Shown here piece after piece: positions 40,657 to 47,978 of a stretch of DNA of 64,000 nt. Source of the DNA: a virus (Duplodnaviria; Heunggongvirae; Uroviricota; Caudoviricetes); the IMG/VR virus record IMGVR_UViG_2875697941_000001; one strand, 5' to 3'. The translations under genes and the position numbers were made by a program. Below the pieces are notes generated by a model that worked only from the letters and a program-made list of their open reading frames with translations, was not told the origin of the DNA and did not search any database. Within the stretch, counting starts at the first letter, position 1. Each line of letters starts with the position of its first letter.

Positions 40657-40668
40657 CCACCAAAAATA

Positions 40669-40688
40669 ACCCCGGCGAGTGCCGGGGT
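40669..40688. terminator. bidirectional intrinsic terminator between convergent pro and lysis genes
   Basis: ACCCCGGC-GAGT-GCCGGGGT hairpin; U-tract on minus-strand side (CAAAAATA upstream), TCTCGTT on plus side. Confidence 0.55.
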
Positions 40689-40700
40689 TCTCGTTAACTA

Positions 40701-41673: not shown

Positions 41674-42162
41674 GTGGCACAACGCGGTGTAAACAAAGTC
41701 ATCCTGATTGGTACCCTGGGGCAAGACCCGGAGATCAGGTATATACCAAATGGCGGAGCGGTCGGAAGACTAAGCATCGCAACAAATGAATCATGGCGCG
41801 ACAAGCAAACGGGCCAACAGAAAGAGCAAACAGAATGGCATAGAGTCGTTTTGTTCGGGAAACTTGCTGAAATTGCGAGTGAGTATTTACGAAAAGGTTC
41901 TCAGGTCTACATCGAAGGGAAACTTAAAACCCGTAAGTGGACAGATGACGCCGGTGTAGAACGTTACACGACGGAAATTATCGTCAGCCAGGGCGGCACC
42001 ATGCAAATGATCGGCGCTCGCCGTGACGATTCACAGTCCTCAAATGGCTGGGGGCAATCGAACCAACCTCAAAACCACCAGCAATACAGTGGTGGCGGTA
42101 AACCTCAGAGCAACGCCAATAACGAACCTCCAATGGACTTTGACGACGATATTCCGTTTTAG
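41674..42162 (+). CDS. ssb: single-stranded DNA-binding protein
   Basis: OB-fold N-domain ([20 protein letters not shown]...[12 protein letters not shown]), Gly/Gln-rich linker, acidic tip DFDDDIPF. Confidence 0.92.
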
Positions 42163-42364: not shown

Positions 42365-43159
42365 ATGACAGCACAAAATACTAAAACCATTCAATACCGC
42401 CTGCGTAATGGCCAGAGTGTAGAAGTGACCATCAATAATGATGGTGTACCTGGCGAAAAGGTTTCTATCTCTGATCTGGCTATCGAAAAAACCATCATGT
42501 GCCACCTTGGCTTTACTGAAGAAGTGAGCAAAAAGCATGGTGTAGCTATCTGGCGCACAATGGATACTGGCATGCGCAGATTCATTACTGCTCGTACCCC
42601 TGGTATGACCATGATGGACCTCATACAGATTGCGCCGCTGTTTGAGTGTGAACCTTTGGATGTATTCAGCAATCCAGCTATCTGCCAGCAGTTATATGGT
42701 GAGATGAAACTCGCGGTTACCCCCATTGTGCTGCATGAAGGATCGCTTGCTGGCGTATGGAAAGTAGAGCGAATTTCAAGCTACATGCCATTCCACATCC
42801 ATGTCAACGGCGTAATCGCAGGTGAAAATCAACCTGTTTCCGTTATAAAGTCAGACCTCAATCGCGCAATTCTTGAAGCAAGTTGTCGAGTTATCGGCCT
42901 GGGCAAACAGTCTTATGTTTCCTTCCCGGCTGGTCCTGAAGGCCCGGCAGAAATTCTGATTATGGATGCTGATCTGCTCTGGCAAATACAGTTTCTGATT
43001 GGCAAAAGCATCATCCGTGCTGAAGAACTCGATCAGTACATTACCTGCACGATGACGGATGAAGTCAAAAGTGTGGCTATAGCCAATGCCCGGAACCTGT
43101 GTCGTGCTGCATTAACAGAACCGCAAGAAAACATTCCAGAAGAAACAGAAAGTGACTAA
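42365..43159 (+). CDS. hypothetical protein (264 aa)
   Basis: ORF with RBS-like AGAGAAAAGACT leader; no motif recognised; immediately upstream of HipA-like gene. Confidence 0.55.
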   Translation: MTAQNTKTIQYRLRNGQSVEVTINNDGVPGEKVSISDLAIEKTIMCHLGFTEEVSKKHGVAIWRTMDTGMRRFITARTPGMTMMDLIQIAPLFECEPLDVFSNPAICQQLYGEMKLAVTPIVLHEGSLAGVWKVERISSYMPFHIHVNGVIAGENQPVSVIKSDLNRAILEASCRVIGLGKQSYVSFPAGPEGPAEILIMDADLLWQIQFLIGKSIIRAEELDQYITCTMTDEVKSVAIANARNLCRAALTEPQENIPEETESD

Positions 43160-43356
43160 TAAAAACCCCGTCAGTTGGCGGGGAACTCCACGTCAAATGG
43201 CCAATTGTTATGTCAGCTAGCAGTTAAAGCGCCTAGTCATCATCTTTTAAAGAAGTCTTTTTAACTTACCTAAATTAGTGACACCTCCCGTTTTGCTTGC
43301 TATTGTACGCATTCATGAATCTATTCATTAATCTATTCACAATAGTAATTAAAACT

Positions 43357-44661
43357 ATGGCTATACATGCAACAACAATCCGTAATTTGCTCAATCAAGG
43401 TCCTATGACACCAAGACAATTGGTTGAAAGACTAGGTGTTAGCCAACCAACGATATCTAGAGCATTAAGAGATCTTGGTGATGAAATCGTTAGGATCGGA
43501 AATGGAAGATCTATTCAATATGCTTTACGAGACTCTTTTAGAGGATTCGAATCAGTCCCCATTTATCGTATAACTGAAGAGGGGTGTATTTGCGTTCTTG
43601 GTACTCTCATTCCGGTGAGGCCAGAAGGCTATGTTATGGTTGAGGAAGGGAAAAATAACAGGCATAGCGATGGGTTACCTTGGTGGTTATTTGATATGCG
43701 TCCACAAGGCTTCCTTGGAAGAGCATATGCATCAGCATATGCTCTTGAACTTAACCTTCCCTCAAATCCAGAGCAATGGTCAGATACTGACGTGATCAAA
43801 GCCTTACTTAAGCATGGGCATGATGTTGTTGGTAATTTGTTAATTGGAGAGCAAGCACGCACGCATTTTTTAGAGATGCAGCCTCCTGTTCCTGTTAATC
43901 GTGAAAGTGAATATCCTGTATTAGCTTTAGCTGCTGGTGAAGGTGATGTGCCCGGTTCATCTGCTGGAGGTGAACAACCCAAATTTTGTACTTTCACAGA
44001 GCGTGGACATGTATTAGTGAAATTCTCTGCGCCTAACGACACCCCTATAAGTGAGCGTTGGAGAGATCTCTTGTTTGCTGAACATCTCGCATTAAAAGTT
44101 CTGGGGGTAGAAACAGAAGTTTTTGATTATAACGGTCAGAGATTCTTGGAAATTCCCCGATTTGATCGTGTTGGTCAACTAGGTCGGGTAGGTGTATTCT
44201 CACTTCGTGCACTTGATGCAGAATTTGTTGGGAATGCAAGAGCAACATGGCCCTTGCTGGTTAAAGAGTTGGTAAAAAATAAGTGCGTCCATCCTGATGC
44301 GATTATTATAGCAACAAGGCTATGGTCTTTTGGTTTGCTAATAGGCAATACCGATATGCATAATGGTAACCTATCGTTTATTAGTAGCCACGGACGCCCA
44401 TATCATATTGCTCCAGCCTATGACATGTTACCTATGGGTTTTGCTCCACGCTCTGGGGGAGCAATATCTAATGAGCTTAGAAAAACAGCACTACCAGACT
44501 TTGTAAGTCGAAAAATATGGGATGAATCTCTTGAATTGGCTGAAAAATTTTATGCATTGGCCTGTGAGTCCGACAAATTCTCAGCTAACTTTACTCCATG
44601 TTTAGAAGCGCTACGCATCCACCTAGATGATTGTAAGATACGCATAGCCCGCCTGGCATAA
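43357..44661 (+). CDS. HipA-family Ser/Thr kinase with N-terminal HTH (YjjJ/HipH-like toxin-type kinase)
   Basis: HTH MTPRQLVERLGVSQPTISRAL; P-loop-like SSAGGEQPKF; catalytic GNTDMHNGNLSF (D-x-H-x-x-N); low-GC; ATG 43357 chosen over upstream in-frame ATG 43297. Confidence 0.8.
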   Translation: MAIHATTIRNLLNQGPMTPRQLVERLGVSQPTISRALRDLGDEIVRIGNGRSIQYALRDSFRGFESVPIYRITEEGCICVLGTLIPVRPEGYVMVEEGKNNRHSDGLPWWLFDMRPQGFLGRAYASAYALELNLPSNPEQWSDTDVIKALLKHGHDVVGNLLIGEQARTHFLEMQPPVPVNRESEYPVLALAAGEGDVPGSSAGGEQPKFCTFTERGHVLVKFSAPNDTPISERWRDLLFAEHLALKVLGVETEVFDYNGQRFLEIPRFDRVGQLGRVGVFSLRALDAEFVGNARATWPLLVKELVKNKCVHPDAIIIATRLWSFGLLIGNTDMHNGNLSFISSHGRPYHIAPAYDMLPMGFAPRSGGAISNELRKTALPDFVSRKIWDESLELAEKFYALACESDKFSANFTPCLEALRIHLDDCKIRIARLA

Positions 44662-44668
44662 ACAACAA

Positions 44669-44694
44669 ATCCCGCCGATTGGCGGGATTTCTTC
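44669..44694. terminator. bidirectional intrinsic terminator
   Basis: ATCCCGCC-GATT-GGCGGGAT hairpin followed by TTCTTC; on minus strand followed by TTTGTTGTTT. Confidence 0.6.
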
Positions 44695-45001
44695 AATATA
44701 CGATCTGGTCTGCATGATCACCAAAATCATCGTCGTCGTCCTCATCGCCACCATCTACTGCTGGCCAATCAACAAACCAGCCAGCGTAAAGATGCAGCGT
44801 TCGGAGAACATCACTTGCGGGAGCATCAAGGGTGTTAACGAATCCCATATAGCTATTGGGATTTGCCCCAGCTATGGCTTCAGCGATCATGTCCTCGGTA
44901 ATGTCACCGGAGATAATGCTTAAACGCCCGGAAACTTCTTCATTATCATCAAATTCGATAATGGCATCTCCGCCTAATGGCGCTGCGATTTTAATCTGCA
45001 T
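44693..45001 (-). CDS. hypothetical acidic protein
   Basis: 102-aa ORF with poly-Asp C-terminus, last gene of minus-strand dar-type operon. Confidence 0.45.
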   Translation of the reverse strand: MQIKIAAPLGGDAIIEFDDNEEVSGRLSIISGDITEDMIAEAIAGANPNSYMGFVNTLDAPASDVLRTLHLYAGWFVDWPAVDGGDEDDDDDFGDHADQIVY

Positions 45002-47978
45002 TATTTAGCTCCTTTGCCACACCTAATAACAGTTCCAGCAATCCGTCACCATTCATCAGTGATGCGGCAGCGGCCTCTTTGTCATGATACAACTGAAGAG
45101 CCATAGAGAATACTTCCGTTGCTGACGTTTTGGAAATAGTCGGTGATTTCTGCCGAATTTTCCCGGTGTTACTTACTGAGGCTGGCGGGTATACCTTCGC
45201 CATATAAATATTACTCAATCGAGATCTGAAGCACCATTCAGGCTTGCCACGCCCACCGATATTAACGAAAGATGGCTTATCCCCTTCAACATTGGCCTTC
45301 AGGAATGACCGGGCTTTCTCTAACAAACCAGGGTTACTGTACTCAAGATGATGACCCAGCTCGTGCCACAGTGCACTTGCATTTTCATCGTTCAAATTGA
45401 CAGCAACAACACCATTAAGATTTGCATATGCCCTTCCCTGGTGGTGAACCACCTTTGATAAGGTCGATATTTTCCCGCCGGTCAGGCGATAAATATCAGC
45501 AAGTTCCTTGCGCAGGTCTATCCCACCACTCTGTCCAGCGCGGGCTTCTTCCACTTCTTCCGTGATAAAAGAGTCGGCCCACTCAAGAGCTTTTTCTTCA
45601 GATACGGATGAGTTGGCTATCGCACTATTCATGGCAGATAACACTTTCTCGTGGACCGAACCCATACTTCGCTGATTCATTTGCCAGCGTGTCTGCGGGT
45701 TATATGAGAATCGCTTAAGTAGTTGGTCAAGATGCTCAAGTTCTTCTTCGCTGACATACTTTTTAGCCTCACCAATAATGCCGGGGAGAATATTGCCGTT
45801 AGGATTAAACGCTCGCGAAAGGAAGAGTTTCAGCGCCCCCATGCCCTCCGATGCTTCAATATCACCAATAACACGGTTAACAATGGCCGCACTCTTCGGA
45901 TTAGCATCCGCCAACGCTCTGGCTACGATTTGCAGGGACGATACGACCTCACGCTGCATATCAGTCCTGATCTCATCAATAAACTCTGGCGTTATGCCGT
46001 GCTCTTTAAGGATATCCCTGCCTTCCGCCGTTACCCCATCGATATCACCGACATGTTTATTAACCTGACTTTGCAATGCCTTAAATGCCTTCAGAATTCC
46101 ACGGGCATCATCAGCTTTACTAACGGCCTTCCTGAATGCTGGCAAGAAGTCAGAGTTAACCTCATTTTGTTGATCGGCCCACTGAATGGAGGCTTCTTTC
46201 ATCTCGTCCAGAGTCAGATCACCCAACGCGGTATGGTCTGTGAATATGAGCGACAACCTCTGAACCATTTCTGCCAATGGTGATGCCGAATGCGCCGCGC
46301 TAAGGAATGCTTTCACCCTGGTTGGGCGAATGGAAAACCAGTCAATAGCTGGTGGCATATCTCCGTTTTTTATCGCCTGCGCTATCTCGTCAAAGCCATC
46401 GCGCCCAAGGGAGGATGCGTGATTTAACAAGCCGCGAAGTAACGAATTGCTGATACCGAATAATCGGCACCATTTTTTCACGTCGGCAACAGGCATTCGA
46501 ACAAAATGCGCAAGCACTTGTACAAGCTGTTCATCCTGGGGATCTGTGCGGGAAAGCAGCCTGATCAGATGAATAATGTCTTTGATGCCGGATGCCCGAT
46601 GTAATAGCAAACTGGTATACGGAGCAACACCGTTGTAACTACCGCCGGAAACGGACTCGAAAAGACCGCCGGATATCCCTTGCATGCCTTCGTTTTCCAG
46701 TTCCTGAGACACCTGGCGAAGGATATCCTGTAACGACACATCACCACCGCCAAACATATCCCCCAGCGCCTGGCCCTGGTGCTGTAACTCATCATTGATA
46801 CGTTGAGCCATCAATTTAAAGGCGGTGGCCATACGCTTCGCGCTACGGTTATTCGCGACGATGAACAACGCGAGCGCTTTCACTTCCGGGGCTGTTTCGC
46901 TGAACATATCCCCCTGAGCAATAACATCGATAATATGTTGGTCTGACTCCTTCGATTGCCTTACCAGGTCTACCGCATCTTTCAATGCCGCCAGCGCCTT
47001 TTTATCGAGACTATCCGCTGTCTCAATACCATCAACAATAGTTGTCACAGCCTGCTTGTGCGCTTCTCCTGATAAAGCCTGCATCTGGACAAAATCATTG
47101 GCTGCCGCATTAAGCGCCGTCAGAACATTACGCATATCCGGATCAGGTTCTTCTGCAACCATCCTTACCAGGCGCGCATCCTTATATGCCTTGGCAAAGA
47201 TCGCGTTTTGTATACGGTCTACAAGTTGCCGTGTTGGTCGCCCATCTTCCGTTACAAGGCCAGCAGCCTGTGTGGCACCAACTTGCGTCATGAATCCGCG
47301 AATAAACGCGTCATTACTGCGGCTAAGCAGATCTCCGCTTTCTGATGGGTTAAACAGCGTCATCATCGCCGGAGTTATGCTGTCAGCATCAACAAAAGCC
47401 TTTTCACTGGCTGCCATTTCCTGAAGATCAGAAATATTTGAGTCCTTGGCAAACTGAACGCGGTCAACCTTAGTTAACCGGCGGCGCACCAGTACCGGAG
47501 CCGCCATTGATTCAACCTTTTCAGGTCGTATGCCGAATTCGGTCGCATGATCAATCAGGTACTCACGATACCGATCCGCATTGCCGTCCTGATAGGCTTT
47601 GATGATCCCCATGGTCCGTCCATTACCTGACTCAACGGCATTGTCCTCACCAATTATCGGCGCGCCATGGCTGGATAAACCGGAATCGGTAAGCTGGGCA
47701 GGACGCAAATCCTTGGATATCTGGTTGACCTGAAGAAGACTGGATGCGCGGGTCCGGTCGCGCGGCTGAAGTTCCTGGGGATAGTCAGGGTTAATTTTCC
47801 CGTCCAGAGTATTGGATACCAAAAGAGCTGAGGCATCGACGATATCAAACGCTGTTTTTACCTCGTCTCCCTTCGCTGTCACCACATACGAAACCCGCCC
47901 GTAATTGGGCAGGTTTTTTAGCAGCTCGATCAGCGTTTCTATGCTGGTGGCCATTACCACCTGATCGCTTAAGCTCAT
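44991..47978 (-). CDS. large virion-associated protein (P1 ddrB position)
   Basis: 995-aa ORF in operon with darA-like genes; C-terminal HExxH-like WHELGHHLEY motif. Confidence 0.65.
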   Translation of the reverse strand: MSLSDQVVMATSIETLIELLKNLPNYGRVSYVVTAKGDEVKTAFDIVDASALLVSNTLDGKINPDYPQELQPRDRTRASSLLQVNQISKDLRPAQLTDSGLSSHGAPIIGEDNAVESGNGRTMGIIKAYQDGNADRYREYLIDHATEFGIRPEKVESMAAPVLVRRRLTKVDRVQFAKDSNISDLQEMAASEKAFVDADSITPAMMTLFNPSESGDLLSRSNDAFIRGFMTQVGATQAAGLVTEDGRPTRQLVDRIQNAIFAKAYKDARLVRMVAEEPDPDMRNVLTALNAAANDFVQMQALSGEAHKQAVTTIVDGIETADSLDKKALAALKDAVDLVRQSKESDQHIIDVIAQGDMFSETAPEVKALALFIVANNRSAKRMATAFKLMAQRINDELQHQGQALGDMFGGGDVSLQDILRQVSQELENEGMQGISGGLFESVSGGSYNGVAPYTSLLLHRASGIKDIIHLIRLLSRTDPQDEQLVQVLAHFVRMPVADVKKWCRLFGISNSLLRGLLNHASSLGRDGFDEIAQAIKNGDMPPAIDWFSIRPTRVKAFLSAAHSASPLAEMVQRLSLIFTDHTALGDLTLDEMKEASIQWADQQNEVNSDFLPAFRKAVSKADDARGILKAFKALQSQVNKHVGDIDGVTAEGRDILKEHGITPEFIDEIRTDMQREVVSSLQIVARALADANPKSAAIVNRVIGDIEASEGMGALKLFLSRAFNPNGNILPGIIGEAKKYVSEEELEHLDQLLKRFSYNPQTRWQMNQRSMGSVHEKVLSAMNSAIANSSVSEEKALEWADSFITEEVEEARAGQSGGIDLRKELADIYRLTGGKISTLSKVVHHQGRAYANLNGVVAVNLNDENASALWHELGHHLEYSNPGLLEKARSFLKANVEGDKPSFVNIGGRGKPEWCFRSRLSNIYMAKVYPPASVSNTGKIRQKSPTISKTSATEVFSMALQLYHDKEAAAASLMNGDGLLELLLGVAKELNNAD

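Follow-up and report, generated by a model that had tools for sequence, protein, structure and literature searches.

Two hairpins bordering a kinase gene in a P1-like phage-plasmid are probably lineage versions of one bidirectional terminator

We analyzed a 64,000-nucleotide stretch of a P1-like (Punavirus) phage-plasmid (hereafter the window), in which a 434-aa kinase ORF lies between two GC-rich hairpins. In the reading that we favor, and that we consider probable with some reserve, both hairpins are versions of one bidirectional Rho-independent terminator that divides the convergent ssb-isaA and hxr-ddrB operons, where the left copy (hairpin L) was introgressed together with the kinase block and the right copy (hairpin R) is resident. 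An earlier note on this DNA had placed the two hairpins at 43166-43183 and 44669-44688, and these positions were correct; each hairpin lies 6–7 nt past a stop codon. The gene order of the locus was ssb (+), isaA-like (+), hairpin L, the kinase ORF (+), hairpin R, hxr (-) and ddrB (-), with the following coordinates for the backbone genes and the hairpins.

41674..42162, + strand: ssb, first gene of the rightward operon and conserved left border of the variable locus
42365..43159, + strand: isaA-like gene of 264 aa, matching the annotated isaA of P1 and SJ46, with its TAA at 43157-43159
43122..43159, + strand: diverged 3' tail of isaA (~38 nt), ending in EPQENIPEETESD and the stop, which occurs only with the kinase cassette
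43166-43183, + strand: hairpin L, CCCCGTCAGTTGGCGGGG, 6 nt past the isaA TAA, with an A-tract on its left at 43161-43165
44669-44688 (full 10-bp stem 44667-44690), both strands: hairpin R, ATCCCGCCGATTGGCGGGAT, between the kinase and hxr stops
44693..45001, - strand: hxr, annotated in P1 and SJ46, with its stop at 44693-44695; conserved right border of the variable locus
44991..47978, - strand: ddrB of 995 aa, annotated in P1, in the leftward operon upstream of hxr

The 4.6 kb surrounding the locus were 96–98% identical to P1, P7, SJ46 and other Punavirus records, and the central stretch was absent from all of them. The ssb product matched Pfam SSB (E = 3.6e-40), with an annotated ssb at the matching position in P1, SJ46 and P7, and the ddrB product matched Pfam ddrB-ParB (E = 3.3e-39). 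The IsaA homologues in the protein collection were 86–100% identical, some of them fragmentary, with two outliers at 45% (P0136) and 38% (P0138, apparently frameshifted). Control of the ssb-isaA operon by C1 is indicated by the operator annotated in P1. Among relatives, the interval between isaA (+) and hxr (-) is the variable locus, and in all classes of gap content the homology restarted at or just within the hxr stop codon. The P1 isaA-IS1-isaB region and its P7 nmpC counterpart occupy the same position between ssb/isaA and hxr/ddrB, and the window differs from them in holding a yjjJ/hipH kinase and no IS. Pfeifer et al. (doi 10.1101/2022.06.24.497495) also name SSB as one of the conserved genes that border the sites where resistance genes insert in P1-like elements.

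Both L and R are GC-rich stem-loops just past a stop codon, as is usual for intrinsic terminators. Hairpin R lies 7 nt past the kinase TAA (44659-44661) and 4 nt short of the minus-strand hxr stop, and its 10-bp fold had energies of -17.0 kcal/mol on the plus strand and -19.2 kcal/mol on the minus strand, with z = -5.4 on both. It has U-tracts on both strands (UUUCUUC on the plus strand and UUUGUUGUUU on the minus strand). The terminator scan flagged R on the minus strand, and on the plus strand the 8-nt window after the 10-bp stem held 4 T, one below the scan threshold. R thus resembles known bidirectional intrinsic terminators in its GC-rich 10-bp stem, its A-tract on one side and T-tract on the other, its position between converging stops and its stability on both strands, and differs from them in that its minus-strand U-tract is interrupted in the window, where the empty sites described below have U7-9.

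Hairpin L departs further from such terminators and looks like a degenerate copy. It folded with 7 bp including one G.U pair (-13.3 kcal/mol), and on the plus strand the U-tract was absent 3' of the stem, where the sequence is AACUCCAC instead. The minus strand does carry UUUUUAUUA, but there an A-C mismatch takes the place of the G.U pair, which leaves only 5 bp of stem and a loop of 8 nt. Modeled in this way, L probably terminates isaA transcription poorly and would be at most a weak backstop for leftward transcription; the strengths of both L and R are predicted ones. We then compared seven hand-picked hairpin alleles (variants of R, the class F allele, L and the allele of locus L067), in which 97.1% of the cells were paired and compensatory changes were present. 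The stem pair adjoining the CCCG core was U-A, A-U, C-G or G-C across four alleles, and the observed covariation score was reached in 0 of 500 shuffles of this small set. The alleles fit a functional terminator whose lineage versions would differ by compensatory changes, L being one of them. A search against Rfam gave only a sub-threshold chance match.

The comparison that bears most directly on the two hairpins is with relatives at the same locus. We fetched 55 IMG/VR loci by a conserved hxr 3' pattern and 9 more by an isaA-tail-plus-hairpin pattern, and classified the loci by the interval from the isaA stop to the hxr stop as follows.

Empty class (SJ46 and at least 20 IMG/VR loci): isaA TAA, 5–7 A, one hairpin ATCCCGCC-loop-GGCGGGAT, then TTCTTCA, in which TCA is the hxr stop
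Class B (at least 18 loci, including phage 813R1): a 356-aa ORF right after the isaA stop, left hairpin absent, the same single hairpin on the hxr side
Class F (L072-L076): a third hairpin allele, AAAGAACCCGCCAATTGGCGGGTTCTTTATTTATT, right after isaA, then a cassette of ~0.7 kb and an altered hxr tail; hxr-side hairpin absent
P1 and P7 types (P1, P7 and relatives): isaB with or without IS1, or nmpC; hairpins unrelated
673R5 (one phage): dGTPase-like genes; hairpin absent
Kinase class (the window, 6 IMG/VR loci, 1 Logan contig, 30 PLSDB plasmids and 25 complete E. coli genomes): always L at the left and the resident hairpin at the right

The hairpin of the empty site was R, either unchanged or with one altered loop base or a flipped loop, and the loop polymorphisms of R (GATT, GACT and AATC) were common to empty and cassette-bearing elements. 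The earlier note had suggested aligning the interval with P1-like genomes lacking the kinase, and this check was positive since SJ46 and the IMG/VR contigs of the empty class carry a single hairpin there; its view of the kinase gene as a cassette at a pre-existing terminator is thereby upheld, the hairpin retained in kinase-free relatives being R. Judged from these alleles, R is the resident copy, the same as the empty-site hairpin. It is not borne by the cassette, because the yjjJ loci of Proteus (L058) and of two islands (L064 and L065) have other 3' ends; the homology of these non-P1 loci to the window was limited to the stretch between the operator repeats (~43298) and ~44600.

Two hairpin copies were found in none of classes B, F, P1, P7 and 673R5, each of which had one or zero. 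The cassettes of relatives sit to the left of the terminator (class B), to its right (class F, where the cassette follows the third allele, GAACCCGCCAATTGGCGGGTTC), or replace the hairpin altogether (P1 and P7, which are without the CCCGCC hairpin and have TAA rather than TGA as the hxr stop codon). In locus L067, which encodes the 45%-identical IsaA homologue, isaA is followed by AAAGCCCGCTGATTATGCGGGCTTT, with a hairpin of the form AAAGCCCGC-TGATTAT-GCGGGCTTT, and then by a convergent ORF for which homology to Hxr could not be demonstrated. A CCCG-core hairpin with compensatory changes follows isaA in four lineages; the hairpin has long been part of the locus and is conserved there.

Hairpin L, in turn, belongs with the DNA on its left. 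L differed from the empty-site hairpin at 5 of 18 positions, compared with ~1–3% in the flanking backbone, and lies 6 nt from the isaA stop, the same offset as that of the single hairpin of SJ46. By BLAST, window positions 43090-43182 were colinear with the isaA tail and single hairpin of ~300 other plasmids at 83–85% identity. The isaA tail itself was unlike the empty-site allele at ~10 of 42 nt and diverged by ~24% from every other isaA allele, with the frame and the stop retained (TELQENTTEEVESD changed to TEPQENIPEETESD), and in kinase-bearing elements it ends with CATTCCAGAAGAAACAGAAAGTGACTAA. Outside the tail, isaA was 96–100% identical where the alignment was gap-free. (Apparent divergences of 45–72% for isaA, hxr and ddrB in some loci were spurious products of indels in an ungapped segment comparison, of which only 43122 to 44692 was in register and used.) The tail was invariant in all seven cassette-bearing relatives examined and was seen on both SJ46-like and P1-like isaA backgrounds, and in L066 the diverged part of isaA extended to ~80 nt, longer than in the window. 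Given that L is continuous with a tail of ~24% divergence, and that the diverged tract is longer in L066, L and the adjoining isaA tail appear to come from another lineage. Such nested left boundaries are what would be expected from homologous recombination eroding an introgressed segment.

The linkage of L, the diverged tail and the kinase was complete, in 30 of 30 PLSDB plasmids, 25 of 25 E. coli genomes, the 6 IMG/VR loci and the Logan locus. Our searches for a donor lineage, in which L or the diverged isaA tail would occur but the kinase would not, found no such element. The exact 21-mer of L matched only Christensenellaceae and Rufibacter terminators among genome contigs, a search for L with a non-A base after it yielded nothing but unrelated matches among viral and metagenome contigs, and a distant blastn search against plasmids found L in the 30 kinase plasmids only. 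When IsaA was used as a protein query, the tail variant was likewise confined to kinase-bearing contigs, and the 45% homologue was also found.

The resemblance between the two hairpins is by itself a weak guide to their history. The earlier note had described them as near-identical, but the identity was only 13/18, or 16/20 when the AAA flank is counted. The core that it pointed out, CCCGNCNNTTGGCGGG, did occur at these two sites only within the window; the corresponding count (2 found, 0 expected), however, uses a pattern taken from the pair itself and overlooks the non-independence of the two halves of a palindrome. As a direct repeat, the pair was no better than chance repeats in the same 2 kb (D2, 25 nt at 76%; D5, 21 nt at 71%). 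A terminator between the pro and lysis genes (40668-40689, CCCCGGCGAGTGCCGGGG), one of ~10 other terminator-like hairpins in the window, matched R at 13/18 and L at 14/18, and the exact L 21-mer was found as an A-run/T-run terminator in a Christensenellaceae MAG, Rufibacter sediminis and one metagenome contig. The similarity of L and R, taken alone, is therefore within chance for GC-rich terminators, and the relationship between them rests on position and on the comparison with relatives.

These same observations are what an explanation by chance resemblance has in its favor, in which L would be an unrelated terminator, of an upstream gene or an antisense transcript, carried along with the cassette, and GC-rich terminators would simply have converged: its identity to R is equaled by an unrelated terminator in the window, its exact sequence recurs in unrelated phyla and the pair is unexceptional as a plain direct repeat. 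We nevertheless give this explanation little credence. L comes straight after a homologous isaA tail, with the 6-nt spacing also seen for the single hairpin, the non-P1 yjjJ loci share nothing with the window upstream of the operator repeats, and the CCCG-core hairpin recurs after isaA, with its compensatory changes, in each of the four lineages. The homology of L depends on its position together with 13 matching bases.

A duplication in situ, as the earlier note had proposed, also seems unlikely to us. The kinase would have been inserted in or beside a single terminator, the event would have copied the ~20-bp hairpin and the left copy would have diverged later, which agrees with the presence of exactly one hairpin at the empty site, with the position of both hairpins abutting the inserted segment and with the retention of the A-tract by L and the T-tract by R, as if a break had occurred at the 3' edge of the hairpin. 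However, the 5 differences in 18 positions contrast with ~1–3% in the backbone flanks, the empty-site allele is R and not L, and the diverged isaA tail contiguous with L goes beyond what an insertion could create. Transposase and terminal inverted repeats are, moreover, both lacking, and five other gap contents occupy the locus without a duplication, all with single or no hairpins. Compared with the target-site duplications of transposons, the repeats do abut the insert and the empty site holds one copy, but the repeats are ~20-nt hairpins of 72% identity rather than near-identical, the mobility gene and inverted repeats are lacking and the flank is altered, the boundary of the block lying inside isaA.

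The cassette that accompanies L consists of the following features.

43184..43277, + strand: spacer of 94 nt, part of the cassette block, with a GC content of 36–38% and 7.4% divergence between the two cassette alleles
43278..43306, + strand: candidate sigma-70-like promoter for the kinase (GTGACA, 17-nt spacer, TATTGT), with TG ahead of the second hexamer
43311..43340, + strand: 12-nt direct repeats ATTCAT(G/T)AATCT containing ATCTATTCA (repeat families D3 and D13)
43357..44661, + strand: yjjJ/hipH, 434 aa, predicted monocistronic HipA-family Ser/Thr kinase with an N-terminal HTH domain

The kinase exceeded the cutoff of the NCBIfam equivalog NF007297 (533.6 bits, cutoff 401), with residues 4-434 aligned on model positions 3-446, and contained the Pfam domains HTH_5/MarR_2 (residues 4-42) and HipA_C (201-363). 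No antitoxin or partner gene was found beside it, and the spacer at 43160-43296 held no ORF of 40 aa or more. The ORF being YjjJ/HipH with no neighboring partner gene, it matches the published description of the family (PMC8262856; PMC9948734), that is, a monocistronic gene with an N-terminal HTH domain, a HipA_C core and no adjacent antitoxin (Gerdes et al. 2021, PMC8262856). It shares the first three of these features with YjjJ (HipH) of E. coli K-12, one of the clade X HipA-homologous kinases (Gerdes et al. 2021, PMC8262856; Gratani et al. 2022, PMC9948734), and is unlike it in being borne by a phage-plasmid. The gene was annotated as yjjJ in the 29 PLSDB plasmids holding the full query stretch, the 30th being split across the record start, and kinase carriers made up 30 of the 378 P1-like plasmids matched in PLSDB (~8%). 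In our searches for a close source, the nearest homologues outside P1-like elements were at most 72% identical, and the search for related loci added only one homologue of 53%. PADLOC gave no meaningful defense-system match for the kinase, isaA or hxr.

Upstream of the kinase, the spacer had no homologue outside cassette-bearing elements, and 43184-43300 was unmatched in any fetched locus. The promoter candidate is a match to the consensus, and the regional count of such matches was not above that of shuffles. The ATCTATTCA repeats were also found upstream of the yjjJ homologues in Proteus (L058), L064 and L065, where homology starts at the repeats, and nothing was in common among these non-P1 loci and the window upstream of them. 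The repeats are a candidate operator for the N-terminal HTH domain of the kinase itself. The cassette block had a GC content of 36–44%, deviating from the 47–49% of the flanks; transposases, terminal inverted repeats and integron-type core sites were all absent, and the kinase was the sole sizeable ORF of the insert.

Phage morons, known from lambdoid phages, are autonomous accessory transcription units located between conserved phage genes. Given its low GC content, its promoter-like site and its conserved 12-nt repeats, the kinase unit appears to behave like a moron, an accessory transcription unit at a recombination hot spot. It is moron-like in lying between conserved genes, in being absent from close relatives, in its candidate promoter with operator repeats, in its downstream terminator and in its low GC content, and unlike a moron in that it did not bring a downstream terminator along but uses that of the resident locus.

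Under the introgression that we favor, the incoming block would have comprised the last ~40 nt of the isaA of a relative, hairpin L, the 94-nt spacer, the candidate promoter with its operator-like repeats and yjjJ/hipH. The left crossover would have occurred by homologous recombination inside isaA, and the right junction by illegitimate or short-homology joining at the A-tract just ahead of the resident hairpin. L would be the same terminator as R, evolved in a more distant, unsampled relative. The layout of the locus, its empty form in relatives, the co-occurrence of L with the cassette and the alleles of the hairpin are observed, and from them we infer the donor, the order of events and the mechanism at the right junction: in the donor the kinase would have been located downstream of the terminator, as are the class F cassettes, and in the recipient it would have landed upstream of the terminator, the position of the class B cassette. 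Combining this donor order with this landing site would therefore leave two hairpin copies in the recipient. R would then end both the kinase transcript (+) and the hxr transcript (-), and L, its T-tract lost, would be a decaying terminator with read-through from the C1-controlled ssb-isaA operon; these termination efficiencies too are deduced from the predicted folds.

We see a slender chance that the terminator hairpin itself creates the hot spot, where breaks or template switching would be favored by a cruciform or hairpin formed from the CCCGCC palindrome. This would fit the cassettes on both sides of the hairpin, the occurrence of the loop as GATT and, in the opposite orientation, as AATC in near-identical elements and the capture of a diverged copy beside yjjJ. 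If so, the two hairpins would be a footprint of hairpin-promoted cassette exchange in phage-plasmids and not passive passengers.

The attC sites of integrons are ~57–141 nt long and imperfectly paired, with GTTRRRY core sites at the cassette boundaries. That the hairpins serve a dedicated cassette-mobility system, integron-attC-like or hairpin-targeting, as its recombination sites is barely credible even with a promoter-plus-gene unit bracketed by hairpins, many alternative cassettes at the locus and an R loop in both orientations, GATT and AATC, since the hairpins are near-perfect and of 18–24 nt and lack the GTTRRRY core (the sequence is GTTGGCG in L, and GTT is absent from R), no integrase or transposase adjoins the locus, most cassette classes have one hairpin or none and the left boundary of the block is inside isaA and not at a hairpin.

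The plasticity of P1-like elements near ssb has been reported, terminators and morons are textbook matter and the HipH family has been described; our literature search found no paper on the isaA-hxr junction or on a P1-borne kinase. The introgression of L with the kinase block would mean that a short 'repeat' at the borders of an insert can be two lineage versions of one terminator and not an insertion scar, which calls for caution in inferring insertion mechanisms from the likeness of GC-rich hairpins. It would also make the HipA-family toxin-type kinase an accessory gene that fits into a fixed slot of the phage-plasmid and uses the bidirectional terminator already in place there. A plastic locus with terminators is ordinary biology, and the more interesting question is the role of such a kinase on a phage-plasmid, which may lie in addiction, defense or host manipulation.

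In the relatives 673R5 and P7, isaA was absent and the slot between ssb and hxr was occupied by dGTPase-like genes and the porin gene nmpC, respectively, indicating that the variable region begins where ssb ends and runs up to the hxr stop. Contents detected in this slot in relatives included the following.

L069 (673R5), 1012-2365: dGTPase-like genes
L068 (P7), 997-2112: porin gene nmpC
L070 (phage 813R1), 1747-2817: class B 356-aa ORF, shared by other loci of this class, among them L013 and L026
L072, 3637-4372: class F cassette, right of the third terminator allele, also in L073-L076

The class B ORF was found directly 3' of isaA in about a third of the surveyed P1-like relatives, where its start region overlaps with that of the isaA stop (GATTAATCG...ATG) and the ORF terminates at the resident hairpin R. 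It is labeled 'terminase large subunit' in one record. Besides a 95-aa ORF, the class F cassette contained a long hairpin rich in AT (at about 4200-4240 in L072), and it was accompanied by a replaced C-terminal tail of hxr.

Smaller-scale variations and repeats were also found in the hairpins, the hxr 3' part and the region upstream of the kinase gene yjjJ, at the following positions.

Window 40668-40689: bidirectional terminator-like hairpin AAAAATAACCCCGGCGAGTGCCGGGGTTCTCG, 3' of a pro-like ORF
Window 43311-43340: tandem 12-nt repeats with ATCTATTCA, 3' of the promoter-like site and ahead of the yjjJ start
L058 (Proteus yjjJ locus), 2137-2185, and the Logan contigs L064 and L065, both about 5945-5985: matching repeats upstream of yjjJ homologues
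Window 44677-44680: 4-nt loop of R, varying at the equivalent position in L003, L018, L033, L006, L043, L047, L055 and others
Window about 44725-44745, hxr 3' part: length variation of the Hxr tail, compared with L002 (3796-3812), L071 and L078

The hairpin 3' of the pro-like ORF resembles R and the left hairpin L, which follows the isaA stop, as closely as these two resemble each other. The R loop was polymorphic between near-identical elements, with GATT in 26, AATC in 7, GACT in 6 and AATT in 4 of the loci tallied. Since CC-AATC-GG is the reverse complement of CC-GATT-GG, the stem-loop sequences indicate that the loop was flipped by a small inversion mediated by the stem, and the flipped form occurs in kinase-bearing as well as empty elements. 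The acidic C-terminal tail of Hxr differed in length between relatives through changes in a GTC/ATC triplet repeat (ATCGTCGTCGTC...), and some ungapped locus comparisons were out of register because of this variable repeat number.

The ATCTATTCA-containing repeats were kept upstream of the yjjJ homologues of L058, L064 and L065 with a DNA identity of just ~68%, and probably form an operator through which yjjJ would be autoregulated by the kinase's own HTH domain. No PADLOC model matched the YjjJ-type kinase of the window. Its closest homologues outside P1-like elements, those of L064 and L065 (71-72% aa identity), both had island-like surroundings. One had a Fic-domain gene on one side and a gene for a phage-type integrase on the other, with AlpA and BrxR on the same island, and the other had a TIR-PNP protein nearby, hinting that members of this YjjJ subclade travel with defence or addiction genes.
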